Source: a virus. From it: a DNA stretch of 64,000 nt. Made by a program: the position numbers and the translations under genes. Below are positions 33,799 through 52,263 of this stretch, one piece after another; position 1 is the stretch's first letter; every line of letters starts with the position of its first letter. The notes under the pieces are model-generated. The model was given only the letters and a program-made list of their open reading frames with translations. It ran no database searches and was not told the origin of the DNA. Location: IMG/VR virus record IMGVR_UViG_3300025141_000026; one strand, given 5' to 3'.

Positions 33799-34003
33799 CT
33801 TCTGTTGCTTCCTCATCTTCTGTGGGTGTCACTTTAACTAAGGGTGGGTTCATAACAACAAGACCAACTTCAGACAGTCTAAATTTGAATCCTTTTAGCA
33901 CGGGCACAATATCAGTTTGATCCATTAGGCTTTTTTGCAAAGCCATCATAACTGCTCCAACTGCTTGATCATCCATGAACATATTTTTATCTTCGTTACT
34001 CAT
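33791..34003 (-). CDS. Hypothetical protein (70 aa)
   Basis: Overlaps both neighbours in a translationally coupled arrangement. Confidence 0.55.
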   Translation of the reverse strand: MSNEDKNMFMDDQAVGAVMMALQKSLMDQTDIVPVLKGFKFRLSEVGLVVMNPPLVKVTPTEDEEATEDA

Positions 34004-34985
34004 TTATTTTTACTCCAAAATTATAAATTTCTTTTTCTAATTTATTCCAATCGCCATCGAACTTGACAGATTTATCGTCAATATAACAAAGTGCTCTAGG
34101 CTTTTCGGCTGTGACTTTGCTAACATATTCACTCAGATTGTGCTTTTTGAGCCACTCCCATACTAATACTGTACCGGTTTTTCCGCTAACCAAACCTCGA
34201 TCTGATTTTGCTTTACAAGTGTGCACAATTACAGTGTATTTTGCAGATAACTTTCTTAAGAACTCTTCCGCTCCTTGAATTGGGTCATCGTAAATAGTAC
34301 CATCAAAATATCCTTTTGAGTTTTTATGTATAACTCCATCAAAATCAACCCCCACGTTGATTTTCTCATCCGGATAGCTGTGTTCTCTTATTTTTCCACC
34401 CTTCCAATTCAACTTTTCTAAATCTTCTGGTGAATTGGAGCCAATAGGTGGGCAAATGTTTCCAGAACCATGTGTTAGTTCATATTGAAGAAGGAGAGAT
34501 AAGCACTCGGCAGTATGATAATAGTTTACCCCCAAAATGACTTGTGTAAGACCCTTTATTTCCACGTCGATAGGCTTTGCCGTAATTAGGCATGCCTCCA
34601 TTCCGTTATCAATCGCCCATTGAAGCGCCTTAATCACATCCTTTGATTTCCCAGATGATGATATTCCGTATACAAGAGATTTTGACATTTGAGTCTTTGT
34701 TCTAGTCGAAATTCTTGACTGGAGCCATGCGACCATCCATTGATCGAAATTTGTATCATTAATATAAGATGTTGCTACAATACAACTGCCCGGACACATT
34801 GCGTTTTTTGTTCCGTTAGAGAGTCTGGTCATATCAACGGCGGTATGGTCAGCAACACCCATGTTGCCGCCATGCCCTAGAACATAGATGTCCTGACATT
34901 TGTTGTACTTTTCTTGCAGTTCTTCCCACTCTTTTGAGTGAACCACGTTTGTAAATAATTCTCCGATATTTTCAAAATCTAACAT
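33996..34985 (-). CDS. SIS-domain sugar-phosphate isomerase (GmhA-like) fused to a HAD phosphatase
   Basis: IYVLGHGGNMGVADH and GISSSGKSKDVIKAL (SIS/GmhA); C-terminal GVDFDGVIH...YIDDK (HAD motifs I and IV). Confidence 0.75.
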   Translation of the reverse strand: MLDFENIGELFTNVVHSKEWEELQEKYNKCQDIYVLGHGGNMGVADHTAVDMTRLSNGTKNAMCPGSCIVATSYINDTNFDQWMVAWLQSRISTRTKTQMSKSLVYGISSSGKSKDVIKALQWAIDNGMEACLITAKPIDVEIKGLTQVILGVNYYHTAECLSLLLQYELTHGSGNICPPIGSNSPEDLEKLNWKGGKIREHSYPDEKINVGVDFDGVIHKNSKGYFDGTIYDDPIQGAEEFLRKLSAKYTVIVHTCKAKSDRGLVSGKTGTVLVWEWLKKHNLSEYVSKVTAEKPRALCYIDDKSVKFDGDWNKLEKEIYNFGVKINE

Positions 34986-35656
34986 TTAATAACCTCCCTG
35001 TGGTATTCAATAATCGACACTGTATCCATTCCTAAGCATTTTATACCGTAACTTTCATAACCTTTTATATTAGTTCTCACGTCATTGGGTACATGTATTG
35101 CTCTTTTTTCTTCTGGTATAATATCATTAAATTTTTCTATTTGTAAACAAAAATCGTCATTGTCAAAATTACCCGGATCGCCAACGCTCATACTAAGATC
35201 ATACGGACCAATTAGATAAAAGTCAAACCCAAATGAAGAAATTTTCTCTATGTTATTGACACCCTCTTTTGTCTCTATCTGGGGTATGATAATTGGGTTG
35301 TCTTTTATAAGCTGCTCACATCCCCACATGTTTTGTCTTACTAAACCCAATCCTCGCTTTCCCTTCGGAGCATAAAAGCAGTAATCAATTATTTTTTCAC
35401 ACTGTTTTGCAGTTTCAATTGTTGAAAATATAATACCATCAACACCCGAGTCTAAACAATACCTTATTGATTTTTTGTCTACATCTGTAAGCCTTACAAA
35501 GCAACGCTTATTTTTAGATTTTATAATTTGTATGCAAGAAAAAAGCACTTGATTATCATACCAGCCATGCTCAGTATCTAAAACAACCCCTTCAGAGCTT
35601 ATGCACAATATCTCACTTACAAGAGGAGATGGTATTTGTTGCCAAGATAAAATCAT
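34979..35656 (-). CDS. HpcH/HpaI class II pyruvate aldolase
   Basis: VLDTEHG, FVR, LDSG.DG, P.GKRG, QIET.EGV.NI..I, IGPYDLS.S. Confidence 0.85.
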   Translation of the reverse strand: MILSWQQIPSPLVSEILCISSEGVVLDTEHGWYDNQVLFSCIQIIKSKNKRCFVRLTDVDKKSIRYCLDSGVDGIIFSTIETAKQCEKIIDYCFYAPKGKRGLGLVRQNMWGCEQLIKDNPIIIPQIETKEGVNNIEKISSFGFDFYLIGPYDLSMSVGDPGNFDNDDFCLQIEKFNDIIPEEKRAIHVPNDVRTNIKGYESYGIKCLGMDTVSIIEYHREVIKC

Positions 35657-35667
35657 TTCTTATACCG

Positions 35668-36480
35668 CTATGACAAAGGCTTTAGTAAATAGTATGATAA
35701 CTGCGGTCCTCGATGAACCTCTATTTCGTCATATGAATAGTTTACACTAACTTTTTCCATTGATTGTTTTATATCCTCCAAAGTCACTCCTCCATTGTCG
35801 GGGTGAGAATGAATTTCTAAAAAGATCGCTGGTTGGTGCTTTTCTAAAAATTTATTTGCTCCATTCAACACGAGACATTCAGCACCCTCAACATCGATTT
35901 TTATTACATCAACTTTAGTATGTCTATCTGTAAAATCGTTAAGAGAAACGGCTTGATATTTTACATCATAGTGCTCCCTATTTGGTCTATCTGCCTTGTG
36001 AATTCTGCTGCTGCCTGCTCCTCCACCAGTATGTATACACGAATAGTGTCTCAAGGTTTCTGTTTCGCTACTTCCATCCGTTACTAATTTTTGAATTAAT
36101 TCAATAGAGCATTTTCTTTCATTTTTGTCTTTCACTAGTGGGCTAATATTCTCTAGGAACACTTCAAAACGCTCCTCTTCTGGCTCAAAAGCTATGATAT
36201 GAAAATTGTCAAAATACTTTGTAATTGGGTAAGTATAACACCCTTCTGCTGCTCCAATGTCAAAAAAAACTATGTTATTTTGAGATTCAGCTTTTTTTTG
36301 CACATATTTTACAAATATGTGGTACATCTTCTCGGGCATCAGATCCCAGTCCATCCATTGTGCGCTTGCAGATCTATTTTCTTCTTTTTTTAGCTTTATC
36401 TGTTCTTCAAGGAAGCCCCACTTACTACTTTCTCTATCAAATTTACTTTTTTCTATTTTTATTACGCCCAAATTCATCAT
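35668..36480 (-). CDS. FkbM-family methyltransferase
   Basis: FFDIGAAEG, IIAFEP, IKIDVEGAE..VL.GA, IFLEIH. Confidence 0.85.
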   Translation of the reverse strand: MMNLGVIKIEKSKFDRESSKWGFLEEQIKLKKEENRSASAQWMDWDLMPEKMYHIFVKYVQKKAESQNNIVFFDIGAAEGCYTYPITKYFDNFHIIAFEPEEERFEVFLENISPLVKDKNERKCSIELIQKLVTDGSSETETLRHYSCIHTGGGAGSSRIHKADRPNREHYDVKYQAVSLNDFTDRHTKVDVIKIDVEGAECLVLNGANKFLEKHQPAIFLEIHSHPDNGGVTLEDIKQSMEKVSVNYSYDEIEVHRGPQLSYYLLKPLS

Positions 36481-36493
36481 AAATTAATCCTTT

Positions 36494-36562
36494 TTATTTT
36501 TTTGTACTGTTCCACGATTCACTTACCAGTGCCGAAGGTATTTGTTGCCACGACAATATCAT
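36494..36562 (-). pseudogene. 22-codon remnant duplicating the N-terminus of the HpcH aldolase
   Basis: MILSWQQIPSALVSESWNSTKK* versus aldolase MILSWQQIPSPLVSEILC; its ATG overlaps the upstream gene's TGA (ATGA). Confidence 0.85.
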
Positions 36563-37341
36563 GCGTGAGTCCATTCTGTTCGGGGTTTACCATAACTTTT
36601 ATTTATATAAGTTATGACAGAGTGATCCGGTGCTGGGAGGTCATACGTGACATGATATATGTTGAAATACTTTTCTAAGTGTTTCTTCATTTGTTCTTTT
36701 TTATCCGCACCTAAAGTGCCATGCATTTCGAGTGCCAAGCATCCAACTCGACTCAAGTCCTTATCTAGAAGAAGATCGTACTCCGCTCCTTCAATATCTA
36801 CTTTCAAATAGTCAATATAATCTGTGTCGAAGAATTCATAAAGACCTTCTAAAGAAATTGTAAAAACTTTATGATAGATTTCAGCTTCTTCAACCCAATT
36901 CTCATTTTGAACTTCTAACATCTCTTTGACTGTTACTGGGCTTACAGATTGATTATTGGACTCATGTTTGTAAATTTTTATAATTTCTCCACTTTCTTTT
37001 GCTGCTGCTAAATTAAAACAAGCAACATTTGTGGCTCTATTCATGCGAACAACTTCATAGAGAACTTTTCTTTGTGTTACTAGAAAATTTTGATAACTAG
37101 CGTCAATGGCGTACATGTTCTTAAATTTATCACAATGATCTAAAGTAAAAAATCCCACATTGCAACCCAGATCTATACAAACATTTTTTTCTATCTCGCT
37201 TGGAATTATATACTCATCATAAAATTTTTCCTGATCTAGTACATTAGAGTTGAAATTAAACTTCATTACGTTTTTCCATGCAAGTTTTCCAAGTTTGCCT
37301 GCTTGATTTGGTGCAATTTTACCGTATTTTCCTTTTATCAT
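36559..37341 (-). CDS. FkbM-family methyltransferase
   Basis: CIDLGCNVGFF, YLKVDIEGAEY; likely start ATG 37341 (AAGGAAC SD). Confidence 0.8.
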   Translation of the reverse strand: MIKGKYGKIAPNQAGKLGKLAWKNVMKFNFNSNVLDQEKFYDEYIIPSEIEKNVCIDLGCNVGFFTLDHCDKFKNMYAIDASYQNFLVTQRKVLYEVVRMNRATNVACFNLAAAKESGEIIKIYKHESNNQSVSPVTVKEMLEVQNENWVEEAEIYHKVFTISLEGLYEFFDTDYIDYLKVDIEGAEYDLLLDKDLSRVGCLALEMHGTLGADKKEQMKKHLEKYFNIYHVTYDLPAPDHSVITYINKSYGKPRTEWTHA

Positions 37342-37352
37342 AATTTGTTCCT

Positions 37353-38054
37353 TTATTTTTTTATAACATACGCTGATGGGCATATAAAATTCATACTTTT
37401 TATTTCTACTTCTTTATCTAAAAAGAACTTATCAACCCCTTTTGATTCCGACCACTCGTGAAATGCGTATTCATCAAAAACAACAACGCCTCCTTTTGAT
37501 ACCCTATCCCACATGGCGCATAGCACATCGTAAGTTGGTTCTGCAACATCTAAATCTAGATATAGAAGGGATATTTTCATTCCCGGTCGAGAAGAGACGT
37601 ATTCATGTGAAGTTTCAGAAACATTCCCTTTTACCAGATCATATTCATGATTTTGAAATCCAGACTCAGAAATCAAGTTTTTCAAATATTCGCAAAAAGA
37701 ATCACTGTGAGAGAATCCTCTATCCTTGAAGAGAACTTCCATAGCCTCTTGATCCTGATCGGATAAGCTTTCTAGTAAAGAATTAGTATCAAAAAAATCA
37801 AAACCAATAACCTTTTTACCAGAGTTGGGAGCGAGATATTTCTTTATTTTTAGAAATGTCATTATACCAGTCCCCTTAAAAACTCCACATTCAACGATGT
37901 CTCCGGGGATATCTTTTACTTTATCAAACAGTAAAGACCGAGCCAATAACTTGCCAAAAACTTTCGTATCTGAACTTAGTATAAAACTGTTGAAGCTGTC
38001 GTATAAGTCCTGACTTTGACTTATAATTTCCAAATTCTTTAATTCAACTGCCAT
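37353..38054 (-). CDS. TylF/MycF/NovP-family sugar O-methyltransferase
   Basis: PGDIVECGVFKG, IGFDFF, LLYLDLD..EPT, GGVVVFDEY. Confidence 0.85.
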   Translation of the reverse strand: MAVELKNLEIISQSQDLYDSFNSFILSSDTKVFGKLLARSLLFDKVKDIPGDIVECGVFKGTGIMTFLKIKKYLAPNSGKKVIGFDFFDTNSLLESLSDQDQEAMEVLFKDRGFSHSDSFCEYLKNLISESGFQNHEYDLVKGNVSETSHEYVSSRPGMKISLLYLDLDVAEPTYDVLCAMWDRVSKGGVVVFDEYAFHEWSESKGVDKFFLDKEVEIKSMNFICPSAYVIKK

Positions 38055-38487
38055 ATTTCTTCCTGTATTCTTCTATTATATCTGAGCAAACCCCTAGACA
38101 TTCGATTTCGATTTTGAACTCACGTCTTTCTGGCATGACGCAGATTGAATTCTTTACTAAATCTTTGCCCGGATACGCCCATATAACCCCTCGACTGGTC
38201 AAAGTATAGTCGTCCTCTTGGTGCCAAAAGCAATGAGCGCCAAGTTTCAATAACTGTTCAAGCGCCTGTAAGTTTTTTGCGTGACACCAAAGCTTATCAT
38301 TGGTTAGAAAATCACTTTTCACTAAATGTTGAGGTTCGTCATGACCTAAAAACCATTGGTTGCTATGATACCACACATCTATTTCGACATCAAATCCTTT
38401 TTTCAAAGCTTTCTCAATATAGGATGGGGTGTTTTCAAGCAATGGTTTTTTGCCATCAATATTACCCCTATGAGATATAAGGATCAC
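38044..38487 (-). CDS. PLC/GDPD-like phosphodiesterase
   Basis: ISHRGN, EN, GFDVEIDV, LGHD, WCHAKN. Confidence 0.75.
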   Translation of the reverse strand: MILISHRGNIDGKKPLLENTPSYIEKALKKGFDVEIDVWYHSNQWFLGHDEPQHLVKSDFLTNDKLWCHAKNLQALEQLLKLGAHCFWHQEDDYTLTSRGVIWAYPGKDLVKNSICVMPERREFKIEIECLGVCSDIIEEYRKKYGS

Positions 38488-39851
38488 TTGTGGTTCTCCA
38501 AGAAATTTCTCAGATCTTCAGGCGTTCCAATCCCCCACATTCCATCAAAGTGAAAAGTTTTTATTTTTTTACCATCTGTTATAGCCTCGTTGAAAACCGG
38601 ACAGACATAAAACTCATTATTTACTCTAGTATTATTTTCAATCATTTGTTCTGCATATTTTACATAATCAGAACCTTTTTTCCAATAATAAATGCCGGTG
38701 GTCGCAATATCACTAATTGGCTTTTTTTCAGCTACCTCAGTCACATATCCATCTGAGTCTAGCTTGGCAAAGCTCCACTTGGGATGAGTCGCTGTAAAAG
38801 TTAACATTCCCCCGTCGATCTCATCAGCCTCCATGGAATACATAAATTCATTACTATCCCAGTCCAAAAATTGATCAGAATTCGCATATAATAGGGGCTC
38901 ATCATTGTCGATGAATTCTTTAGCTAATAGTGTGGTGCATGCTGCGCCTTCAGTCATTCCATCAACTTGAACGACTTCACAATCTGGTGATATCAAATTC
39001 AAAAGGTGTTTCAGATTGTACTGCTCATAATGCTCTTTTTGAACCACAAAAATGTGTTTTGCATCTATGTTTAGGTTTTCCACAACAACCTGTATCATTG
39101 GCTTTCCATTTACCTCAATCAAAGGTTTTGGGAATGTGTATCCAGCTTGTTGAAATCTAGATCCTGCTCCAGCCATCGGTATAAGAACGTTCATTTTTCC
39201 TCCTTGCCACTTTGGTTTTGTATTGTTTTGTTTATTTATTCTTTTTATATGGTTGATTATTTTGTCGTATTGTACATCTTCACAATTTTTCACAGCATGT
39301 AAATGTGCACCGCTATTAATAGCTGCTGTTCTACCATGGTGAGAATCTTCTACGACTAACGTCTCATGGGGGTCTACATTAGCTCTTAGCATGCATTTTA
39401 GATATATCTCTGAGCTTGGTTTTGGTCTCTGCACATCTTGGTTTGAATACAAGAAATCAATATGTTCAAAAAAGCCTTTTCTTAAGAGTTGAAGTTTTGC
39501 AGTTTCCCTAATTGAATTTGTAGCACATGCTATCATCAAACCTTGAGATTTTATTTTTTTCAGTATTTTACAAACTCTCTCATCTCTAGAAAAATTATCA
39601 ATTATCTCGATTGTCTTTTTTTGTTTAGTCTTCCATATGATATTGTGCAAACTTTTGTCTAAACCTTTTCTTTCAGACAATAAATTCAGTTTTTTTGTGG
39701 TAGAAAGACCATCAAAAATTGATAAGTGTTCTTTTTTATTTATTACATACTTCTCATCAACATCTGCCAAGGCTGCGTTGAGAGCTTCATAGTGGATTTC
39801 TCTAGCGTTTACTAAAACTCCATCTAAATCAAAAACAACAAATTTAATCAT
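38484..39851 (-). CDS. HAD phosphatase fused to a sugar-phosphate nucleotidyltransferase
   Basis: FDLDGVL...PKP..EIY...VEDS (HAD) followed by IPMAGAGSRF...PKPLIEV...NSDQ...EKKPIS...GIGTPEDL (NTP transferase). Confidence 0.85.
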   Translation of the reverse strand: MIKFVVFDLDGVLVNAREIHYEALNAALADVDEKYVINKKEHLSIFDGLSTTKKLNLLSERKGLDKSLHNIIWKTKQKKTIEIIDNFSRDERVCKILKKIKSQGLMIACATNSIRETAKLQLLRKGFFEHIDFLYSNQDVQRPKPSSEIYLKCMLRANVDPHETLVVEDSHHGRTAAINSGAHLHAVKNCEDVQYDKIINHIKRINKQNNTKPKWQGGKMNVLIPMAGAGSRFQQAGYTFPKPLIEVNGKPMIQVVVENLNIDAKHIFVVQKEHYEQYNLKHLLNLISPDCEVVQVDGMTEGAACTTLLAKEFIDNDEPLLYANSDQFLDWDSNEFMYSMEADEIDGGMLTFTATHPKWSFAKLDSDGYVTEVAEKKPISDIATTGIYYWKKGSDYVKYAEQMIENNTRVNNEFYVCPVFNEAITDGKKIKTFHFDGMWGIGTPEDLRNFLENHK

Positions 39852-40773
39852 CTCTAAAACGCTCCTCTTTATTTATTGGGTGCTGGTCAATATCTCCCTG
39901 TTTGCCTAAATCTAGCCAAATATCGCCCTCATTCCAACCAATATAATTTTTATCTTTTAGTTGTATGTCTTTTTCAAAATAATAGTATTGAACAAAATTC
40001 GGCACCTTTGGAGGAGACGGGGGACTATCAATAAAATCTTTAGACCATTTAGTCAGCCACCCAACATAAGAGGGTTGAGTTTTCCATGTATCTTTCCACT
40101 TCCAATAAAAAATTTGCGTGGTGTGATACCATGCCTCATCCCAAAGTGGGTTAGATTTTATTTCTAACCAGTCACTATTTCCTCCTTGATATTCTGGAGT
40201 GTCTAGCGGCATAGCGTCTGCTTCATTTAGCAACCTTCCATGAACTACATCGTTGATCAGAGAATGTTCTTTATTGTAAATAAGTGCTCTAATATAGTAG
40301 TCGGCTTCTTTGTTTCCGGGGGTCAAAAACCTTTCATCCCACATGCCAATCTTTTTCACCGCATCAGGTCGATAGCTAACAATGTTATCACCCAAGCGAC
40401 CTGTTACAAAAGTGTACTTTTGGTGCATCTTTAGTAAATTTGTAGCCCAGTTTGAATCCAAAACAATATCGTTTTGCATAGTAACCACAATTTTACTATC
40501 AGGGTTATTTAAATCGACAAAACCATGAACTAAAGCTTGATTCCAATTTCTTGCCAAGTTACCGGTGTCCCAATCGGGGCGGGCGTTGTTGTGTATAACG
40601 TTCACCCTGTCCTTGAAGCGATCCTCTATAGAAAACTCTGAGTGGTTGTTGATTATATTTACTTCAGTGTTTTGTATAGATGGAAAATCAGTCTTATTGA
40701 AGAGAGTGTCTAGAGTTTTATTCAGGATTTCTGTTCTCCTGTATGTGACAATATATATTTTTATATTTTTCAT
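39844..40773 (-). CDS. GT-A fold glycosyltransferase (GT2-like)
   Basis: IYIVTYRR, IINN, QNDIV, KKIGMWDERF...EADY. Confidence 0.65.
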   Translation of the reverse strand: MKNIKIYIVTYRRTEILNKTLDTLFNKTDFPSIQNTEVNIINNHSEFSIEDRFKDRVNVIHNNARPDWDTGNLARNWNQALVHGFVDLNNPDSKIVVTMQNDIVLDSNWATNLLKMHQKYTFVTGRLGDNIVSYRPDAVKKIGMWDERFLTPGNKEADYYIRALIYNKEHSLINDVVHGRLLNEADAMPLDTPEYQGGNSDWLEIKSNPLWDEAWYHTTQIFYWKWKDTWKTQPSYVGWLTKWSKDFIDSPPSPPKVPNFVQYYYFEKDIQLKDKNYIGWNEGDIWLDLGKQGDIDQHPINKEERFRDD

Positions 40774-41417
40774 TCTCTATCGACCTCCTTCAAAACCGCC
40801 TCCCAGTCACTTTCTGTATCTATGTCCATATTATACGGTTTAGAAATTGAGTAAAAATATGGATTTTGACCAATTCTACTAGACGTTGATAATACCACAG
40901 AGGGTTTAAATATGTAAAATGCAGAATTTTCTTCGTAAACAACGGGTAAATCTTGAGTCTGCTCTAATCTTAGAGGGTTGTGGTTGATTGGGCAAAAGCC
41001 ATATTTTTCTTTTCTCCAAAATCTAGAATTATAAGTATTACAAGATACAACTGAATCGTGTTCAGTCATATATTTGTATGCGTCCTTTATAATATCTGCG
41101 TTCAAAAAAGGACTAGTGACATGCACCTGAGCGATTGGGTCATGTACGTTATATCTTGTAATAAAATTTAGGATTAGATCACAAACCGATATGGAATCGC
41201 CTACGAGAGCTTCATCTCTCATAAAGACATTGACATTAGAAAGACGTGAATCGCTGTTGATGCTTTTATATATTTCATCACTATCAGTGTCCACATGCAC
41301 TTCCAGATCTCCATATTTCAAGAGCGAGTGCTTGTACAGAGGCTCGCCTTTGAATGTTCTAAAATTCTTTTGAGGGACGCGCTGGGAGTTTTGTTTTATA
41401 GGTACGAATATTTTCAT
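40770..41417 (-). CDS. CMP-sialic acid/Kdo synthetase-like cytidylyltransferase (NeuA family)
   Basis: PIKQNSQRVPQKN, VDTDS, TSPF, TQDL..VYEENS, DIDTESD. Confidence 0.85.
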   Translation of the reverse strand: MKIFVPIKQNSQRVPQKNFRTFKGEPLYKHSLLKYGDLEVHVDTDSDEIYKSINSDSRLSNVNVFMRDEALVGDSISVCDLILNFITRYNVHDPIAQVHVTSPFLNADIIKDAYKYMTEHDSVVSCNTYNSRFWRKEKYGFCPINHNPLRLEQTQDLPVVYEENSAFYIFKPSVVLSTSSRIGQNPYFYSISKPYNMDIDTESDWEAVLKEVDRE

Positions 41418-42598
41418 TCTATTTCTTGCAAAGCTTCCCTGATCATGTTACAACCTATAATTGCATCTTCTTCACTCAAAGCAAGATTTGGTCTTAGGCG
41501 TATTGAATTTGCTCCGGTGGAGTTACAAATCATACCCTTGTCATAAAGAATTCTCATCAACCTGTCTCTTGTTTCAGTATTCTTCAGGTCAAATCCTATT
41601 ATCAAACCTTTAGATCTAAAATTATCAATCCCAGAAACATCAGATAGCAAATTCCTTATTTGCTCTCCTCTTTTATTCACATTATCCAATACAGAGCCTT
41701 CTTGAAACTCTTGAATGATGTATTTGCACCGTATCATATCAAGCGTATCCGAATTCCAAGTCACTTCTAGTCGGGGCACATCTTCTTTGCTAAAAATATC
41801 ACTAAATTTTTTAGTTACCATCAACCCAGACACCTGCGTCTTTTTACCAAAGACAACTATATCTGGGGTTATTCCGAGATGCTCGAAATACCACAATTTT
41901 CCTGTAGCTCCAAAGCCTACCTGAATTTCATCGAATACCATTGGCACATCATATTTGTCACACAAATTTCTGAGCTTAGAAAAGAACTCCTTGTCGTGAT
42001 GGATATCACCCGCTGTACACTGTATTGGCTCGACAACAATGCACGTTACAGGATTATCTTCACTGCTCATATTCTTTTCAACTTCTTCTAAGTCATAGTT
42101 GCATTTTGTTGAAAAAAGTTCTGGTATTCCTTTTAGTCTCTTGAGGGAAGTGGAGAATCTGCCCGTTATAAAACCTCCGTAGCTGTTGACACCGTGGAAG
42201 CTATTGTTGAAAGATAAGACATTAAGATTTTTATAATTTTTATAATGTAGGCTTATTTTTATTGCCGCTTCAACTGCTAGTGCTCCTGTAGAGCAATAAT
42301 GAAAGTTGGAAAATGTATTGTCTAAAGAGCAATAGGAGCTAAATTGCTTATCGAATTCTTCTGTTTCATCAGAAACAAATTCACAATTAGTAACTTTCAC
42401 ATGTGAGCATCTAATAATTTCATCTTGAAACTGTTTGGTTTTGAAAACTTCATGATTATAGCCAAGGGGTAAAGATGCATACATGCCAAAGAAATCTAAA
42501 TATTTTCTATTAGAATTCTTATCATACAAGTATGCTCCGGAGCTTTTATCAAAATCAATTTTTATGTTGAAAATGCTACCCCTAGCTATATTATTCAT
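41414..42598 (-). CDS. Class III PLP aminotransferase (L-lysine epsilon-aminotransferase-like)
   Basis: YLDFFGMYASLPLGYNH, TGALAVEAA.K, SFHG, VEPIQ, FDEIQVG.GATG, DIVVFGKKTQV; likely start ATG 42598. Confidence 0.85.
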   Translation of the reverse strand: MNNIARGSIFNIKIDFDKSSGAYLYDKNSNRKYLDFFGMYASLPLGYNHEVFKTKQFQDEIIRCSHVKVTNCEFVSDETEEFDKQFSSYCSLDNTFSNFHYCSTGALAVEAAIKISLHYKNYKNLNVLSFNNSFHGVNSYGGFITGRFSTSLKRLKGIPELFSTKCNYDLEEVEKNMSSEDNPVTCIVVEPIQCTAGDIHHDKEFFSKLRNLCDKYDVPMVFDEIQVGFGATGKLWYFEHLGITPDIVVFGKKTQVSGLMVTKKFSDIFSKEDVPRLEVTWNSDTLDMIRCKYIIQEFQEGSVLDNVNKRGEQIRNLLSDVSGIDNFRSKGLIIGFDLKNTETRDRLMRILYDKGMICNSTGANSIRLRPNLALSEEDAIIGCNMIREALQEIE

Positions 42599-43730
42599 TG
42601 TAATGGTCTCCTTCCGGATATGTATGTTCAACATCGTCGCGACTCACAGCCAAGCGTATAGACTGCTCTTTGCCATGTCCAGTGATTTTATGCACAACAC
42701 CCTTTGGTATAAAAACAAAATCGCCTTCTTTTACAACAGATGTTTCTCCATCTATTTCCCACTCCCACTCACCCTTTATGATATACCACCACTCATTCCA
42801 ATCCGGGTGATAATGTCTCCTATTTCCTTCTCCGGGCATTTGAGCAATCAAGGTAGCACTGTTATTTTCTGTATTTATCGCCCTATAACACCAACTAGAA
42901 TTTGGATCATTAGATCCAATAATGTCTTCTATGTTTACAATCATTTGATTGGCTAAATTGTAGCTAGAAGATTTTACTCCATCTTTTGACAAAATCTCTG
43001 GTACGTCAACTTCTGTATGCTCTTGACCATAATATCGCTTTGCAAAACTTCTATTTTTAGATAAGCTTCGAGCAACTGTTTCAGCTAACTGGAATTCTTC
43101 TTCGTTGTCAATATCGACAGTGGAATATCCTTTAAGTGTGAAAAAGTCTATTTTGCCGTCGCCGCCATGATAGGCAGCACCATATTTTTCAATATTTTCT
43201 AGATAGTTGTCTTTTCTCCACCCCATCAAAGAGCATCCGTAGGCTTTGATTGGAGTAAGAGTTTGTGATGGAGGCGTTTGCTTTTTTTGAAAAAAGTTGA
43301 TAGGTGCGCCGTCATACATTGCCTCTATTTGTACATCAATCATAGATATGAGTGTGTCCAACCCATTATAAACAAATTGTTTTACAAATTGCTGTATTTC
43401 TTCTGTCGAGATAAACGGGGACGTTGGCAATATTTGTATCACAATGTCGCAATCAACATTATTGAAGAAATCCTGTGTAAATTCATCATTGCTGGCTGTA
43501 TCAGATGCAAATTCATCTGGTCTTTTATAAAAGTTTACATCTGATTCTAGCGCTATCTCCTTTATAATGTCCGACTCTGAATTGACCCATATTTCATCAA
43601 AGCACCCCGCTTCTTTCGCAGCGTCGATGGCATATTGAATTAGCGGCTTACCATTCAAAAGGCGTATATTTTTTTTTGGGATTCTTTTGCTACCCATTCG
43701 TGCGGGTATCATTGCTACTATTTTTGACAA
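42591..43730 (-). CDS. NeuA-like CMP-sugar synthetase fused to a C-terminal cupin
   Basis: IPARMGSKRIPKKN...PTSPF...DIDNEEEF, followed by the cupin HYHPDWNEWWYI..GE...GD..FIP.G..H. Confidence 0.85.
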   Translation of the reverse strand: MSKIVAMIPARMGSKRIPKKNIRLLNGKPLIQYAIDAAKEAGCFDEIWVNSESDIIKEIALESDVNFYKRPDEFASDTASNDEFTQDFFNNVDCDIVIQILPTSPFISTEEIQQFVKQFVYNGLDTLISMIDVQIEAMYDGAPINFFQKKQTPPSQTLTPIKAYGCSLMGWRKDNYLENIEKYGAAYHGGDGKIDFFTLKGYSTVDIDNEEEFQLAETVARSLSKNRSFAKRYYGQEHTEVDVPEILSKDGVKSSSYNLANQMIVNIEDIIGSNDPNSSWCYRAINTENNSATLIAQMPGEGNRRHYHPDWNEWWYIIKGEWEWEIDGETSVVKEGDFVFIPKGVVHKITGHGKEQSIRLAVSRDDVEHTYPEGDHYNE

Positions 43731-43744
43731 TTTTATGACCTCTT

Positions 43745-45655
43745 TTATTGTGTGGTGTGCAGGATTTTTGGCAATTTCTTAAACTTATCTATTCTCTTGT
43801 GCAAATCAATATCATATAACCCCTCTTTCACGTCGGGATCCATTATAAACCTGTTGTCGCTTTCTAAGACATTTATGCAATGCATCATTTGCGACATTTG
43901 GTCATGTAATAGTTTGTCAGGTCCTAAATAAGATCCGTCATTTCCTTGTGCGTTGATGTATGCAGGATTATACTTGTCTTTTATATCTTTGACAACACCA
44001 AAATTATAAAAATTAACACCAAATACAGCCAACTCTTTCAAAGGGCAACTTAGTAACATATTCAGCGCACCGTACCCTGAATTGAAATTGCCACTGTAAT
44101 AAGTATACATGTTTTTGCCAACTTTTTCAACGTGTGGTTTCGCATAAACTTCCCAGTATAAAGCCCACCTTTCCCACGTCCCATCTTCATTTTGCAAGTG
44201 AGCTAAAGGTACATTATATTCTTTTAGATAATCGTTGTATTCTTTGACAACAGAATGCCAATCGCCGCTCCCCGGATAGGGATATTCTCGCGCAACTGTG
44301 TCATTGCAAATAATGAACTTTGGTCTGCTCTCTACAGGAGTTTTTTCTAAAAAATTTGCCACCTTGGGGCTATAGCTAGAATTTAAACAACTCTGAACAA
44401 TATCTGTTCGGCTACCAAAATCACTAGTGTCCCATATCTCTGGCTGTACTCTCACAACAACATCATAGCTATCTATTAGACTTCCTTTACCTTTCCCAGA
44501 TAGACACGGTGCTGGTCCTACAAAGGCGACTCTTTTTCCTCTAAGATATTCTTGTAAATCTTTATTGGTTTGTGCATTCTTTATAAATAAAGAATCATTA
44601 TTTTCCATTGTCTGATAAATATCAACACATTCATTCGCACTTATGTTTCTATATTCTTTTAGTTCATCATTTATGTTTTTTACTATGTTTATCCACGGGT
44701 CTTCTTTAGTCTTTAGAGTTTCAAAAGTGACATCTCTACGCAATATATTTTCGACCCTATTCCTGAACTCTGGGTGTAAAACCATAAATTGCTTTTCGAT
44801 ATCAAACTCTTTATTTGAAAAGAATTCATGTTCTAGATTAAAAACATTCTCTATCTTTTCTTTGTTGAAGTAGTTTACATCAGGTGGGGAAGAAGCTGGT
44901 GTAACGTCTTTGTCTCTAAAGATGTTTACAAAGGCTTTTTTTATAAGCAAGCTGTCATCATATTCTTGAGGCAACGATGCAAACATACTCAGCACTTTCT
45001 GCTTTTTGAAAGAAGGTCTTATCCACTTCCACATTTCGTCCATTTTATACTTGCTATATGCACCGTCTTTATTATACTCAGACTCCTCATTGCTAAACCC
45101 ATTATCATATATAATCTTATGACTACATATAACGTTTTTCATGAAGGGAAGCTCTTGAATATTAAACATGTGGCATGAGTCAACATCAACAGAAAAATTT
45201 GTGCAAAGAGGAAAAAACCATCGTAGTAATGTGTGGTGGACAACCTTTAGTCCAAAGTGTGTAAACGGAATGCAAGAGTAATCTTTGCTCTCATAGTATT
45301 TCTTGTCGGAAGCATATGGTGTTTGAAGATTCTTGCCGGGATAGTAAGTCAATACCGCTGGGTTGTGTTCGAGATCTTCGATTATTTGCTCTTTGACCCC
45401 TAAACTTCTTTGTGGTCGCAAAATATAGTCATAATCTATGAATGCGTAATAATCATATTTCTTGGGAACGAGTTCACACAACGTGTCTCTTGTTTGCGCC
45501 CACTTAGTGTTAGGGCAAAATTTTAGAGCATCTTCGTGTTCAGCATCATGAGTGACAAAATAAAAATCACAGTCCTCTTTATCCCTAAAGTAGTTCACAT
45601 GATCTTGATTCGGAATTTCAGGCGTTACTTGTAAAACACAAAGCCTCTTTCTCAT
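43745..45655 (-). CDS. Two-domain glycosyltransferase: N-terminal GT-A-like (DYD) plus C-terminal GT29 sialyltransferase-like domain
   Basis: RVAFVGPAP.L.G...G..IDSYDVVVR....DFGSRTD (sialylmotif L-like), NSGYGAL.MLL....ELAVFG.NFY (motif S-like), HD...Q (VS-like). N-terminal YYAFIDYDY. Likely start ATG 45655. Confidence 0.7.
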   Translation of the reverse strand: MRKRLCVLQVTPEIPNQDHVNYFRDKEDCDFYFVTHDAEHEDALKFCPNTKWAQTRDTLCELVPKKYDYYAFIDYDYILRPQRSLGVKEQIIEDLEHNPAVLTYYPGKNLQTPYASDKKYYESKDYSCIPFTHFGLKVVHHTLLRWFFPLCTNFSVDVDSCHMFNIQELPFMKNVICSHKIIYDNGFSNEESEYNKDGAYSKYKMDEMWKWIRPSFKKQKVLSMFASLPQEYDDSLLIKKAFVNIFRDKDVTPASSPPDVNYFNKEKIENVFNLEHEFFSNKEFDIEKQFMVLHPEFRNRVENILRRDVTFETLKTKEDPWINIVKNINDELKEYRNISANECVDIYQTMENNDSLFIKNAQTNKDLQEYLRGKRVAFVGPAPCLSGKGKGSLIDSYDVVVRVQPEIWDTSDFGSRTDIVQSCLNSSYSPKVANFLEKTPVESRPKFIICNDTVAREYPYPGSGDWHSVVKEYNDYLKEYNVPLAHLQNEDGTWERWALYWEVYAKPHVEKVGKNMYTYYSGNFNSGYGALNMLLSCPLKELAVFGVNFYNFGVVKDIKDKYNPAYINAQGNDGSYLGPDKLLHDQMSQMMHCINVLESDNRFIMDPDVKEGLYDIDLHKRIDKFKKLPKILHTTQ

Positions 45656-46620
45656 AGCTCTTTTTGCCACCTTTCTATCATTTCTTCCAACATTGATTCA
45701 AAAGTATACTCAGGCTCCCATCCCAATATCTCTCTTGATTTGCTAGAATCTCCTTTCAAATATTTCAATTCTTCAGGTCTCATAAATTTTGGATTTTGAA
45801 CAATGTAATCTTCGTAATTCATTCCAAGTTTTGAAAAGACAATTTCGCACAATTCTCTAACCGAGTGTGTTTTGCCCGTAGAAACTATAAACTCATCGGC
45901 TTTATCATGGTTGATGATCATATGCATAGCTCTAACATAATCTTTAGAATGTCCCCAATCCCTATAGGAATCCATATTACCAAGTTCTAACTTATCTTGC
46001 AAGCCTTTTTTGATTGCAACTGCTCCTTTCACAACCTTGTTTGTTACAAAGTTTGATCCCCTTCGCGGAGATTCATGATTAAATAAGATACCATTGCATG
46101 CATGCAAACCATAGGCAGACCTGTAATGACGAACGAGGTTGAATCCCATAACTTTTGCACAGCCATATGGACTAACTGGAGTCATTGGTGTTGTGAGTCT
46201 TTGAACTCCATCATCATCAACAGAATTCCCAAACATCTCAGAGGAACTAGCTTGATAAAATTTTGATTCCGGACATGTGGTTCTAAAAACCTCTAACATA
46301 TTCAGGACACCAAGAGCATTTGTTTGTATGGTGAATGAAGGCATATCAAAACTAATTCTAACATGGCTCATCGCGCCTAAATTATATATTTCGTCAGGCA
46401 TGACATTAGATACAACTCTATGCAAAGAAGGGAAATCTAAAAGATCTCCATAGTGGCAATTTATTTCACCTTCAATTTTTTGCAGTCTGGCGTCTTGGTT
46501 CTCTGCGACGGAGTGCCTTCTAACCAATCCATGCACTTCGTATCCTTTAGACAATAACAATTCAGTTAGGTAACTTCCGTCTTGTCCAGAAATACCTGTA
46601 ATCAAAGCTTTTTTCTTCAT
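45652..46620 (-). CDS. gmd: GDP-mannose 4,6-dehydratase
   Basis: ALITGISGQDGSYL, YNLGAMSHV, YQASSSEMFG, SPYGCAK, LFNHESPRRG.NFVT.K, RDWGH. Confidence 0.95.
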   Translation of the reverse strand: MKKKALITGISGQDGSYLTELLLSKGYEVHGLVRRHSVAENQDARLQKIEGEINCHYGDLLDFPSLHRVVSNVMPDEIYNLGAMSHVRISFDMPSFTIQTNALGVLNMLEVFRTTCPESKFYQASSSEMFGNSVDDDGVQRLTTPMTPVSPYGCAKVMGFNLVRHYRSAYGLHACNGILFNHESPRRGSNFVTNKVVKGAVAIKKGLQDKLELGNMDSYRDWGHSKDYVRAMHMIINHDKADEFIVSTGKTHSVRELCEIVFSKLGMNYEDYIVQNPKFMRPEELKYLKGDSSKSREILGWEPEYTFESMLEEMIERWQKEL

Positions 46621-47219
46621 TTTTGTTCCTTGAAAATTTTCATTTGCGTTAAGTCAGCCCACTCATTTATATTCCATACTCTTGCTGGCTGTTTAATAGC
46701 TTGGGGCAATTTTTGTAATCCCATCTCTGCTGTCTCTGGGGTCATGTAGTAATGGTACCCTACCATATCTATATCTTGTTTCACCCATGGAACCTCGTTT
46801 GGTTCCCTACCATCATAACTCATTTTTCTCAAAATTTTAGATACTTTTTCATCATCAGTCAAGATAATTCCACCACGCCCCAAGCTTAAGTGTTTTTTGA
46901 ATTGAAAGCTTACACACATGAACGTATTTTTTATATAGCTGTTTTTTTGCCATAATACCGCAGCATCAATTATATTAGTCTCTCCAATATAATAGAAGTT
47001 TTGCCAACTCTCATCTTTCCACTTTAGATCAATATTGAGTTTATTAGCCAGCATTGGGATTGATAAATAAGTTCTCTTCGGCACAGTTATAGATTTTACT
47101 TTTTGCTGTCTCAGGCAAAGCTCTATACCGTGTGTGCAACAGTCTACAGCTACTGCGTGAGGAGAGCCAAAAAAAGACGCTATTTGATTTTCAAACTCTC
47201 TAACTTTTTCAAAACTCAT
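46617..47219 (-). CDS. Short DegT/DnrJ/EryC1/StrS sugar aminotransferase (~200 aa)
   Basis: FE..IA.FFG..HAVAVDCCT.G, IIDAA, SFQFKKHL..G.GG.ILTDD, GYHYYM; likely start ATG 47219. Confidence 0.8.
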   Translation of the reverse strand: MSFEKVREFENQIASFFGSPHAVAVDCCTHGIELCLRQQKVKSITVPKRTYLSIPMLANKLNIDLKWKDESWQNFYYIGETNIIDAAVLWQKNSYIKNTFMCVSFQFKKHLSLGRGGIILTDDEKVSKILRKMSYDGREPNEVPWVKQDIDMVGYHYYMTPETAEMGLQKLPQAIKQPARVWNINEWADLTQMKIFKEQK

Positions 47220-47755
47220 TTTACACACTCCACATTTAAGCTAATCAAAGTTCCATTCTCTTTATCCATATGTGGCAAATATGCTTGGGAGTGATCATCA
47301 TGTATGTGATGCTCCGTATCTCTCCAATCATATTCCTTTATGCTAGTAAAGCCTATGCTTATTAGTAACTCTTTGAGGGTTGAAAAATCATACGTTGTTT
47401 TGTGGAATATTTTTTTATCACTCATTTTCATTTTGCCATACAATGGTCCAAGAAAGTTGTTCAGTGGATAATCGCCATTGCAATAAAGTTTTGCAATAAT
47501 CTCAAAATTTGGCACTGCTAATCTTAGAATGCCGCCGGTTTTCAGGACTCTTTTCCACTCAGATAAAACCGCAACGACCTCTTCTCTGTCAAAATATTCT
47601 ATAACATGAGATGCGTAAATAAGGTCAACGATATTATCTTCAAGTTGTTCTAGGCTTTGAATATCACTGTAATCTAAGTGTGGATAATCTCCTCCATCAA
47701 TATGAGTCCAATCTGAGCCGAAATCTCTCCAGCCGCATCCCATATTTATTTTCAT
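47216..47755 (-). CDS. Class I SAM-dependent methyltransferase
   Basis: KINMGCG, DLIYASHVIEY, W.RVLK.GG.LRLAVP. Confidence 0.85.
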   Translation of the reverse strand: MKINMGCGWRDFGSDWTHIDGGDYPHLDYSDIQSLEQLEDNIVDLIYASHVIEYFDREEVVAVLSEWKRVLKTGGILRLAVPNFEIIAKLYCNGDYPLNNFLGPLYGKMKMSDKKIFHKTTYDFSTLKELLISIGFTSIKEYDWRDTEHHIHDDHSQAYLPHMDKENGTLISLNVECVK

Positions 47756-47759
47756 ATTA

Positions 47760-48182
47760 TCACTCTATAAATTCCTTATCTAATTTTTGACCCAAGTATG
47801 GTCCAGTTTTGAATTCATACACTTGGGTGTTGTCTTCTAAAACTTCATAATTGTGACCACCAAAAAGCGTTATTGAACAGTCTCCTTGCTCTATTATATC
47901 CTCATGTATAATGCTGTCATCTAGATCATAATATATGACTTTTACTGATCCTCTAATAACCACCCAAGATTCTTGGGCAATAGTTTTGTCATTGAAGTCT
48001 TTATATATGTGTTTGTGAGGGGCAAATGTTTTCCCCTCGTCCATTTTTAATACAGCTAATTGTAAAAAGTTATCATCTTCAATGACGTCAAGTCTAGATG
48101 TTTCATCAAATAAGCTTTTTTTTATAATTTTATGAAGCAGCTTATTTTTTTCTATTTTAGAATAGATGTTTACAACACTCAT
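47760..48182 (-). CDS. Cupin-fold sugar isomerase/epimerase (WbuC-like)
   Basis: PHKH...QESWVVIRG...GGHNY...EFKTGPY. Confidence 0.7.
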   Translation of the reverse strand: MSVVNIYSKIEKNKLLHKIIKKSLFDETSRLDVIEDDNFLQLAVLKMDEGKTFAPHKHIYKDFNDKTIAQESWVVIRGSVKVIYYDLDDSIIHEDIIEQGDCSITLFGGHNYEVLEDNTQVYEFKTGPYLGQKLDKEFIE

Positions 48183-48877
48183 TACAGGTCCAAAGCCTCT
48201 TTCAACCCCTTTCTTCTAAAACATCTGAGGGTCGTGGTTGGGCTGCAATTTACAACCTCTACATTGGCATGGGCGGCACGGTAAGCGAACGCATTCCATG
48301 TTGGTAAGTGGAAATCTAAACCTCTTGGAACATTATATTCATCGCCAGCTTGCTGATAGTCGTCAAACCAATAATTTGGATTTTTATCCGGAGTTTCCTT
48401 GATCTTCAGCCCAACACCATCTTTTTCACAGCCGTCAATAAATTCAACGTAATTGCAGTCAACTCCAAGTAAAATAATTTTATTATAACCCATACAAATT
48501 GAAACAGAGCTTGCATTTGCTCCGGAGTTTCCATTGTCATGGAATGACAAAAAATCTTCAGGACTTTGATTTATTTTGTTTGTAGATCCAAATGGTTGCA
48601 TATTTATATGTTGAAATTTTTCATGTGGACCAAAATAATCTCTTATATAAAAGCATTTTTTTATTGGGCTATTATCTATTAAGTTTTGAAAACTTTCCTT
48701 GTGGTTATCGGTAACACGATAGTCAAAGCATCCATGATATGTTGACCACCAATTCATTCTCTCATATGCTCTATATGCCGAGTTTAGTCCGAAAGTATCC
48801 ACTCCTTTCAGCATATCAAAATCTACATCTTTTAGAGATGGACCATTTCCCATGACAACTATTGTTTTATTTTTCAT
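48182..48877 (-). CDS. Maf/MptE-like (DUF115) putative nonulosonate transferase
   Basis: IVVMGNGPSL, FGLN, GNSGANA...MGYNKIILLGVD, VVNCS. Confidence 0.7.
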   Translation of the reverse strand: MKNKTIVVMGNGPSLKDVDFDMLKGVDTFGLNSAYRAYERMNWWSTYHGCFDYRVTDNHKESFQNLIDNSPIKKCFYIRDYFGPHEKFQHINMQPFGSTNKINQSPEDFLSFHDNGNSGANASSVSICMGYNKIILLGVDCNYVEFIDGCEKDGVGLKIKETPDKNPNYWFDDYQQAGDEYNVPRGLDFHLPTWNAFAYRAAHANVEVVNCSPTTTLRCFRRKGLKEALDL

Positions 48878-49718
48878 AATAATCCCAAAATCTTTGCGAA
48901 GTCTCTTTTACATATTTCAAACAAGACTCATTTGTTTTGTACCATTCCTCTTGTGCATGTTGGACGTTCTCGTTGACAATGACATCCCCCCCCAACAGTT
49001 TAGCTTCTATTGTTATTCTGGGGCATGTATCGCCTCCGGATGGTAAGAAAATCAATCCCTTTGATGTAGATAACTTAATCAACAGTTCATGATAGGGGAG
49101 ATTTTTTACCAACTCATAATTCATATTGTTCTTTTCAGCAAAATCAATAGTGCTTTTGGTATTCTTGATCCAAGAGTCTGAATCTAATATGATGAATTTA
49201 TCATTCTTTTCGTTATGAGAAAGTGTCTCTATGAATCTAATATCCGTACTGGCAAAGATTGAACTAAGGACTTCACTCTTTTTCTTTGATAAAAATTTCA
49301 TGTTATCAAAAAAGATTTCTCTTTGTTTGGCACTCATAAACCATATTTTTTCTGCGTATGCATAAAGCGCAATGTTTGATTTTATTTCACAGTCGCACTC
49401 TTTTTGTTCGGCTGCGAAATGTTTTTCCATTGACCTATATTTACAAAACTTATAATCATACTCAATAATAGAATATGAATTGTTTTTGCACATGTGAACT
49501 TTTTCTAATTCACCCAAGTTTGCAAAATTACAAACTACAAAATGGCAATCTTTGTTTTGATCTAAGACACTTTCAGTAACATCATGAGAATGAACTAGGG
49601 CACATGATATATTGTTTTCTACCGCTTTACCAACAAGTGCGCCTGTAGATAGTTCAGCACCCCCTGTATAATCTTCAAGAAACATATCTGCTATAAAAAT
49701 ATATTTCTTTTTGCTCAT
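48867..49718 (-). CDS. Compact GT-B-like glycosyltransferase
   Basis: GGAELS near the N-terminus; DTCPRITIEAKLLG resembles the GT-B donor-binding motif. Confidence 0.6.
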   Translation of the reverse strand: MSKKKYIFIADMFLEDYTGGAELSTGALVGKAVENNISCALVHSHDVTESVLDQNKDCHFVVCNFANLGELEKVHMCKNNSYSIIEYDYKFCKYRSMEKHFAAEQKECDCEIKSNIALYAYAEKIWFMSAKQREIFFDNMKFLSKKKSEVLSSIFASTDIRFIETLSHNEKNDKFIILDSDSWIKNTKSTIDFAEKNNMNYELVKNLPYHELLIKLSTSKGLIFLPSGGDTCPRITIEAKLLGGDVIVNENVQHAQEEWYKTNESCLKYVKETSQRFWDYYEK

Positions 49719-50986: not shown

Positions 50987-50987
50987 T

Positions 50988-52256: not shown

Positions 52257-52263
52257 GTTTACC

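Follow-up and report, generated by a model that had tools for sequence, protein, structure and literature searches.

An HpcH-type pyruvate aldolase as the candidate ulosonate-forming enzyme of a marine phage glycosylation island

How can a phage supply an acidic sugar for glycosylation when it carries genes that would activate and transfer such a sugar and no synthase of the kind that makes one? To our knowledge, all described routes to 3-deoxy-D-manno-octulosonate (Kdo) and to sialic-acid-like sugars use a phosphoenolpyruvate (PEP)-dependent synthase of the KdsA or NeuB family, and genome surveys take the KdsA and NeuB genes as markers of these pathways. The question arises in a 64,000-nucleotide stretch of viral DNA, IMG/VR record IMGVR_UViG_3300025141_000026 (hereafter the window), in which a first-pass annotation had placed a candidate non-canonical ulosonate pathway built on an HpcH/HpaI aldolase between positions 33996 and 48877. 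Every gene named there is present at its position in one co-oriented cluster: the glycan genes lie on the minus strand, as do all window genes from about 1 to 62 kb, and mostly overlap by a few bases. From gene content, catalytic residues, folds, synteny and a complementary distribution of synthases, we infer the steps of a cytoplasmic pathway, and we hold with moderate confidence that this island forms a cytidine monophosphate (CMP)-activated 3-deoxy-2-ulosonic acid through the HpcH aldolase, in place of NeuB or KdsA, and then transfers it. The genes central to this reading are the following.

33996-34985, minus strand: fusion of a SIS domain (GmhA-like ketose/aldose phosphate isomerase) with a capless HAD phosphatase, 329 residues, assigned by motifs and fold (SIS-HAD)
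34979-35656, minus strand: HpcH/HpaI class II (metal-dependent) pyruvate aldolase, the proposed ulosonate-forming enzyme, assigned by Pfam
40770-41417, minus strand: NeuA/PseF-like CMP-ulosonate synthetase (CTP_transf_3; Pfam E 2e-11, PseF E 1e-18), a cassette member
41414-42634, minus strand: class III (omega-type) aminotransferase, lysine-epsilon-aminotransferase-like (Pfam E 3e-62)
42591-43730, minus strand: second CMP-ulosonate synthetase, with a PMI-like cupin as its fusion partner (CTP_transf_3 E 4e-26; Cupin_2 E 6e-16)
43745-45670, minus strand: bifunctional glycosyltransferase of 641 residues with a TarP/RmlT-like GT-A domain at the N-terminus and a GT29-fold domain at the C-terminus (AlphaFold2 pLDDT 85, Foldseek)
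48182-48877, minus strand: GT42 (CstII)-like or MptE-like CMP-ulosonate transferase candidate, 231 residues, assigned by profile

The aldolase matches the Pfam family HpcH_HpaI (PF03328) with 57 bits against a cut-off of 25 (E 2e-15). In an alignment with GarL (1dxe), whose motifs EH, VR, QIE and GPxDL hold the catalytic and metal residues, H30, R55, E128 and D153 fall on these motifs; the four are invariant across 24 homologues. The annotated family stands, with the catalytic His and Arg and the metal ligands kept. The enzyme shares its fold, family, catalytic His and Arg and metal ligands with GarL, HpaI and RhmA/YfaU, but these act in operons for the degradation of aromatic compounds and sugar acids, whereas the window's gene sits in a glycan-building island. 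GarL, HpaI and RhmA are also its closest NCBIfam models, at about 75 bits, far under all equivalog cut-offs (369-407). It is the sole C-C bond-forming enzyme of the window, and its stop codon overlaps the start of SIS-HAD. Marine metagenomes contain at least 769 members of this tight family (56-93% identity), and many of them are carried by contigs of 150-200 kb; in cultured phages, the aldolase was matched in two Staphylococcus phage records only, at 28% identity. A 412-residue protein considered as an aldolase fusion matches over its first 141 residues only and has no SIS-HAD part, and was taken as a broken or chimeric gene call.

What would feed this enzyme and process its product? The AlphaFold2 model of the adjoining SIS-HAD protein (pLDDT 82) has GmhA structures as its best Foldseek matches (E ~1e-6), and VIA-align places the SIS domain nearer to P. 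aeruginosa GmhA (Z 20.4, rmsd 2.7 over 173 residues) than to KdsD (Z 16.2). With GmhA it shares only the fold and the GxGGx and SSSGxS loops, and the NCBIfam gmhA model gives it 26.9 bits (E 4e-6) against a cut-off of 209, below equivalog level. The protein contains no CBS domains and thus is not of the KdsD type, in which SIS is combined with two of them. Residues 204-329 form the second domain, which aligns to HAD hydrolases with Z scores of 9-10 and has a marginal Pfam match (E 0.07). In 26 homologues, motifs I-IV (D214xD216G, T256, K295 and D303-D304) do not vary; together with the Rossmannoid fold, they show that this domain belongs to the HAD phosphatase superfamily. Both halves of the annotated fusion are therefore confirmed. 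It has 246 relatives in IMG/VR, and its ESM Atlas clusters are viral.

The enzymes that would activate and transfer the sugar are of the sialic acid type. The CMP-transferase at 40770-41417 has CMP-Neu5Ac synthetases as its closest solved structures and no tblastn match in cultured phages; NCBIfam ranks the CMP-transferases as PseF or NeuA above KdsB, all scores being under the cut-offs. The GT29-fold domain (residues ~370-641; 43748-44563) scores 26.4 bits against a Pfam cut-off of 23, and Foldseek matches it to ST8SiaIII, ST6Gal1 and ST6GalNAc2 (E 2e-5 to 5e-5; target TM-scores 0.38-0.46), in agreement with the annotated family. Judged by eye, it also has conserved stretches that resemble the sialyl motifs L and S, and near residue 589 a His is conserved. 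A standalone homologue (L030:8605-9345) reaches 44 bits with GT29 (E 2e-11). Related phage islands also hold two families known mainly from plant cell-wall synthesis: beside that gene, at L030:7311-8630, we observed a methyltransferase of the DUF579 IRX15/GXM type (E 3e-29) together with a Nucleotid_trans (GT77-like) protein.

The product of 48182-48877 had been called Maf/DUF115-like. Its match to the Pfam family MptE-like (PF01973), at 27 bits, is under the cut-off of 34.6, and a profile of its homologues matches the Campylobacter GT42 enzymes CstII and CstI (E 4e-8 for CstII, 2drj); it carries the motifs GNGPSL and SG..GY..L.G.D. It thus remains a candidate CMP-ulosonate transferase, but its sequence profile makes it a putative second sialyltransferase-like enzyme, of the GT42 type and nearer to CstII than to Maf. 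In one related phage locus (L001), the GT-A domain found at 43745-45670 has an MptE-like domain as its partner in place of GT29; thus, the two transferase types are interchangeable partners.

How constant is this set of genes? We compared aldolase neighbourhoods in 54 IMG/VR loci, using family hidden Markov models built for this analysis to count cassette members; a distant aldolase clade (L046-L053, 31-39% identity) has no cassette genes and was excluded from the counts. A minimal cassette, which returns in dozens of contigs from marine viruses, runs in the order GT29-like gene, CMP-transferase, aldolase and SIS-HAD, with the GT29-like half as a standalone gene of about 245 residues and the CMP-transferase directly upstream of the aldolase, and many loci share only these genes with the window. 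Of the 35 loci with SIS-HAD, 30 have it as the next gene downstream of the aldolase. The CMP-transferase is found in 40 of 46 aldolase-clade loci, the remaining six being cut off upstream, and a GT29- or GT42-like gene accompanies aldolase and CMP-transferase in 38 of these 40 viral loci with enough upstream sequence, which bears out the expected co-occurrence of HpcH, NeuA and sialyltransferase-like genes. The closest relative of the window, G002, has 81-99% protein identity across the island. The window adds further genes to the cassette. Its aminotransferase, for which L-lysine epsilon-aminotransferase is the nearest solved structure, has counterparts in just 4 of the 54 loci and is therefore a lineage-specific decoration. 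In at least 10 related loci, the cupin is a separate gene of 140 residues followed by a short-chain dehydrogenase/reductase (SDR) gene and the CMP-transferase, an arrangement that suggests a tailoring step in which the sugar would be oxidised or isomerised and then reduced or aminated. Both the aminotransferase and the two NeuA-type enzymes, one of them cupin-fused, are clear Pfam matches, as annotated.

Does the aldolase stand in for NeuB or KdsA, or beside them? Pfam scans of the window's open reading frames gave no match to NeuB (PF03102) or KdsA (PF00793), and tblastn with phage NeuB and KdsA against its six frames gave a best E of 1.4, which upholds the reported absence of both from the window. 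Neither family was detected in nine aldolase-bearing relatives searched whole with family models (G001-G005, G224, G225, G227 and G228), and G001, G003, G004 and G225 are 100% complete according to CheckV. We then approached the cassette reciprocally, from the best 80 of the 246 SIS-HAD relatives in IMG/VR. A CMP-transferase adjoins or is near SIS-HAD in almost all of these loci, and 37 of 78 have the aldolase directly upstream of SIS-HAD. Sixteen records with no aldolase within 5 kb were searched whole. One of them, G214, turned out to have an aldolase 7 kb away, which makes it the tenth aldolase-bearing record, and neither NeuB nor KdsA was found in it by tblastn with phage sequences. Among the 15 records left, three contain NeuB (G210, which is complete with terminal repeats; G209, 80% complete; and G226, which may be the same phage as G209) and two contain KdsA (G212 and G215). 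NeuB or KdsA is thus present in none of ten aldolase-bearing versus five of 15 aldolase-less records, which are small numbers.

Several features of the aldolase-less loci bear on this distribution. The NeuB island of G210 has no amino-sugar precursor genes and SIS-HAD is its sole visible precursor supply, which matches the logic of a pathway to 2-keto-3-deoxynononic acid (Kdn). L109, which has no HpcH aldolase, carries a class I pyruvate aldolase of the DHDPS/NanA family (L109:3347-4315, E 1e-21) directly upstream of CMP-transferase and SIS-HAD; this DHDPS-family gene is in no other fetched locus. A 222-residue gene that follows SIS-HAD in some aldolase-less loci was considered as a hidden synthase and rejected: its N-terminus is GT-A-like, and it has no Pfam match. 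As judged from gene content, the overall pattern fits a non-orthologous displacement in which one cassette would have exchanged its condensing enzyme. The displacement is not strict, because three loci hold the aldolase as well as NeuB or KdsA and the aldolase is missing from about half of the loci with SIS-HAD and CMP-transferase.

What is the mechanism of the proposed pathway? The SIS domain would convert a ketose phosphate to an aldose phosphate, which the HpcH aldolase, replacing the PEP-dependent synthase, would condense with pyruvate to a 2-keto-3-deoxy acid. The fused HAD domain would strip the phosphate, either from this product or from the aldose beforehand, since the two steps may occur in either order and the aldolase might use the dephosphorylated form. 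The NeuA-like enzyme or enzymes would then use cytidine triphosphate (CTP) to form the CMP-sugar, and the reversible aldol step would be pulled forward by CTP consumption and dephosphorylation. By their families, the GT29-fold domain and the GT42-like protein would transfer the CMP-sugar, and the aminotransferase, cupin and methyltransferases may decorate it in the window's lineage. The most economical product would be a Kdn-type C9 nonulosonate made from mannose-6-phosphate, since enzymes of the sialic acid type would activate and transfer it and there are no amino-sugar precursor genes; a C8 or C10 sugar could also be formed.

This scheme can be set against known systems. The Kdn pathway of Bacteroides thetaiotaomicron and animals comprises a NeuB-family Kdn-9-P synthase, a HAD-type Kdn-9-P phosphatase and a CMP-Kdn synthetase. 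The island resembles it in the sequence of sugar phosphate, C3 condensation, HAD phosphatase, NeuA-type activation and sialyltransferase-type transfer, with amino-sugar precursor enzymes unneeded, but it has an HpcH class II pyruvate aldolase and not a PEP-dependent NeuB, its isomerase and phosphatase are fused, and its product is conjectural. With the CMP-Kdo pathway (KdsD, KdsA, KdsC and KdsB) it shares the order of SIS isomerase, condensation, HAD phosphatase and cytidylyltransferase. It differs in lacking KdsA, in a SIS domain nearer to GmhA and without CBS, in CMP-transferases that score higher as PseF/NeuA than as KdsB and in transferases that are GT29/GT42-like and not WaaA, KpsS or KpsC. 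NanA, a class I enzyme of the DHDPS family, reversibly joins pyruvate and an aldose to a 3-deoxy-2-ulosonic acid, and L109 has a DHDPS-family gene in the equivalent place; In vivo, NanA nevertheless works catabolically, and its aldolase class, the Schiff-base one, is unrelated to the metal-dependent class of the window's enzyme. A precedent, in which an aldolase displaces the PEP-dependent synthase of a 3-deoxy-ulosonate phosphate, comes from archaeal aromatic amino acid synthesis, in which the aldolase-type ADH synthase replaces DAHP synthase, albeit in another pathway, enzyme class and group of organisms. The route as proposed works like the Kdn and Kdo pathways but lacks what defines them, a synthase of the NeuB/KdsA family.

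Several observations weigh against the aldolase route. The window has two CMP-transferases and one candidate synthase. No aldolase lies within 5 kb in 37 of the 78 SIS-HAD loci, and no synthase, whatever its family, turned up in 10 of the 15 aldolase-less records, each of these a fragment with a completeness of at most 34%. L041, L075 and L107 hold the aldolase plus NeuB and/or KdsA; L041 and L107 have three CMP-transferases each, which in L107 makes three for three candidate synthases. A neuB or kdsA gene elsewhere in the window's phage genome is excluded only by proxy, via the relatives, and a Gram-negative host would itself make Kdo-8-phosphate. The aldolase's activity, product and reaction direction are all things that we infer, and the proximity of the SIS domain to GmhA, together with the existence of bacterial GmhA-GmhB-like fusions (a lead only), hints at a heptose connection. 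The original proposal is thus supported in part: all the suggested checks that were run favour its central idea, but the displacement is not strict, the aminotransferase is lineage-specific and the Maf-like protein is closer to GT42.

A reading that takes up many of these points is that the ulosonate or its phosphate comes from a PEP-dependent synthase, either the host's or one encoded in an unseen phage region, that SIS-HAD and the CMP-transferases boost only the flanking isomerisation of the precursor, dephosphorylation and activation and that the aldolase serves salvage, cleavage, remodelling or the formation of another pyruvate-derived substituent. It would account both for the roughly half of SIS-HAD/CMP-transferase loci without a nearby aldolase and for the loci that hold both kinds of enzyme; furthermore, Gram-negative hosts have KdsA, and the characterised HpcH enzymes, with GarL, HpaI and RhmA the closest, are catabolic. 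We nevertheless find it unlikely, because the aldolase is translationally coupled to SIS-HAD and lies between SIS-HAD and the CMP-transferase in the minimal cassette, because NeuB and KdsA are absent from complete aldolase-bearing phage genomes and present in aldolase-less ones, and because a catabolic enzyme has no obvious role in a glycan-building island. The GmhA likeness (Z 20.4) could instead mean that SIS-HAD is a GmhA-GmhB-type pair feeding the HAD-NTP-transferase (38484-39851) and Gmd-like dehydratase (45652-46620) of the island towards a GDP-(6-deoxy)heptose, its adjacency to aldolase and CMP-transferase being incidental. The nearest cellular look-alikes of the fusion are bacterial SIS_2-HAD proteins named heptose bisphosphate phosphatase (score 0.78, a lead only), and two small PF01467 cytidylyltransferase-like proteins of the TagD or RfaE domain II type are encoded nearby, outside the island (54019-54453 and 63373-63834). 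This is improbable given that SIS-HAD is linked to CTP_transf_3 in essentially all of the best 80 loci, including minimal cassettes with neither NTP-transferase nor Gmd, that L016, L017 and L019 have the HAD-NTP-transferase without SIS-HAD, that a heptose kinase is absent and that the gmhA score is 27 bits for a cut-off of 209. Finally, the CMP-activated product might not be a glycosidically transferred ulosonic acid at all, as would be the case for a reduced 2-hydroxy acid or a non-deoxy acid derived from hydroxypyruvate: a D-isomer-specific 2-hydroxyacid dehydrogenase gene directly follows the aldolase in a phage (L024:10668-11687) and in a contig binned as Altiarchaeales (L055:4864-5800), and such genes adjoin it in several Pelagibacteraceae loci; the dehydrogenase might supply the donor or reduce the product. 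The window, however, has no such dehydrogenase, and CTP_transf_3, GT29 and GT42 enzymes are not known with anything but 2-ulosonic acids, so that we give this variant very little credence.

Which virus carries the island, and what might it glycosylate? Besides the following structural genes, the flanks encode a PhoH2-type protein, a DNA methyltransferase and a protein of the S-adenosylmethionine (SAM)-lyase family (59906-60625, E 2e-8).

18424-20250, minus strand: gp6-like baseplate wedge protein (flank)
20267-20674, minus strand: gp25 (flank)
56032-58881, minus strand: tail fibre (flank)

With these genes, the window is part of a large myovirus-type phage. Its baseplate and gp55-like proteins are nearest, at about 30% identity, to those of Flavobacterium phage immuto and Microcystis phage Mel-JY01, and a pelagimyophage label was dropped for this reason. 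Megablast of the island against cultured phages gave no match, nor did an exact-word search of IMG/VR with the window. Several studies of marine metagenomes and of viral-fraction metagenomes, long-read marine viromes included, contain near-identical DNA, and the sequence is therefore real and circulating; the public runs listed with it include no RNA run. No transmembrane-type hydrophobic segment was predicted in any of 21 island proteins, and no flippase, polymerase or initiating transferase is present in the island. Because of these absences, the acceptor would more likely be soluble, for example virion proteins of the surrounding structural module, than an undecaprenyl-linked O-antigen.

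A related gene pair occurs in cellular genomes: four from Pelagibacteraceae have a CTP_transf_3 gene directly after the gene of an HpcH aldolase, and a fifth locus (L060), cut at the contig end, has the same pair (L056:7067-11136, L060:1-2902 and L065-L067). These aldolases are 33-41% identical to that of L056 and 29-41% to the phage enzyme. Near the pair lie unrelated isomerases, NagB-like or standalone SIS, an equally unrelated IMPase-type phosphatase and a 2-hydroxyacid or GFO/MocA dehydrogenase. Two of these genomes have NeuB elsewhere. A broader reading, which we offer tentatively, is that marine phages and, with another gene order, Pelagibacteraceae use a class II pyruvate aldolase as the committed, PEP-independent synthase for a CMP-activated Kdn- or Kdo-like sugar, that NeuB, KdsA, HpcH and NanA-type enzymes are interchangeable modules of one cassette, and that the phage glycosylates its own virion proteins in the cytoplasm with GT29/GT42-type enzymes.

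The remaining genes show that the island extends past 48877 to 52295 and contains more than the proposed route:

35668-36480, minus strand: FkbM-family methyltransferase (Pfam E 3e-17), a lineage-specific insertion with homologues in 7 of 54 loci
36518-36562, minus strand: remnant copy of the aldolase N-terminus, 15 codons that keep 14 of 15 residues, located upstream of the FkbM gene just listed
36559-37383, minus strand: second FkbM-family methyltransferase (Pfam E 3e-11)
37353-38054, minus strand: TylF-like sugar O-methyltransferase (Pfam E 8e-12), in 22 loci
38044-38487, minus strand: miniature GDPD-like protein of 147 residues (HRG..EN..ExD..HD; profile against PDB 7e0v, E 7e-4)
38484-39851, minus strand: HAD (beta-phosphoglucomutase-like) fused to a sugar-1-phosphate nucleotidyltransferase (HAD_2 E 1e-26; NTP_transferase E 2e-15)
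39844-40773, minus strand: GT2-like glycosyltransferase, weak match (Pfam E 3e-3), 65-97% identity in 22 loci
45652-46620, minus strand: GDP-mannose 4,6-dehydratase (Gmd; Pfam E 2e-113), of a nucleoside diphosphate (NDP)-6-deoxyhexose branch
46617-47228, minus strand: short DegT-like protein, 203 residues (Pfam E 7e-19), with homologues of 196-220 residues in 12 loci
47216-47755, minus strand: class I SAM methyltransferase (Pfam)
47760-48182, minus strand: conserved protein of 140 residues with no Pfam match, homologues in 8 loci
48867-49718, minus strand: conserved protein of 283 residues, by homologues the N-terminal part of proteins of 533-639 residues in other loci
49715-50998 and 50988-52295, minus strand: two GT4-type glycosyltransferases closing the island (Pfam)

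Overall, the island encodes about six glycosyltransferase domains and would make at least two activated sugars. The FkbM genes, found in 4-7 of the 54 loci, are lineage-specific decorations, and the aldolase remnant looks like a scar of the insertion of an FkbM cassette between the TylF-like gene and the aldolase. The HAD-NTP-transferase, which is two separate genes in L024, co-travels with the GDPD-like and GT2-like genes independently of SIS-HAD. Gmd, the short DegT-like protein and the methyltransferase likely form a GDP-6-deoxyhexose branch. The HAD-NTP-transferase, GDPD-like, Gmd and DegT-like proteins belong to at least one separate NDP-sugar module, outside the ulosonate route.

Some of these genes have unusual features. 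The GDPD-like protein is about half the length of a GDPD barrel, and its gene always comes after the NTP-transferase gene. The DegT/DnrJ-like protein covers roughly the middle of the Pfam model; its length is kept in 12 loci and thus it is no recent pseudogene. A RuBisCO-like protein is encoded in the glycan islands of related complete phages (L001:8352-9536, E 1e-34; L146:7354-8538, E 3e-33), in L001 between the NTP-transferase and GDPD-like genes, which are adjacent to each other in the window. A PD-(D/E)XK nuclease gene (52264-53040, E 1e-16) lies directly at the upstream edge of the island.

What would the aldolase route mean for the biology of these phages? Canonical kdsA and kdsB in cyanophage S-SCSM2R were reported in 2025 as a first (PMC12801897), which makes a marine phage the carrier in that case as well, and a study of pelagimyophages mentions glycosyltransferase and lipopolysaccharide genes in host-recognition clusters in general terms only (PMC7029224). 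In the library searched, we found no paper in which HpcH-type aldolases are connected with ulosonic acids or with activation by CMP, and none that describes the route proposed here. If the route is real, surveys based on KdsA and NeuB miss a whole class of acidic-sugar producers, both viral and among very abundant marine bacteria, and a simple PEP-free enzyme set would be available for making CMP-ulosonates; the four-gene cassette is small enough for direct reconstitution. The GT29 family is regarded as mainly eukaryotic. Large marine phages would then carry complete, self-sufficient systems for glycosylation with acidic sugars, GT29-fold transferases included.

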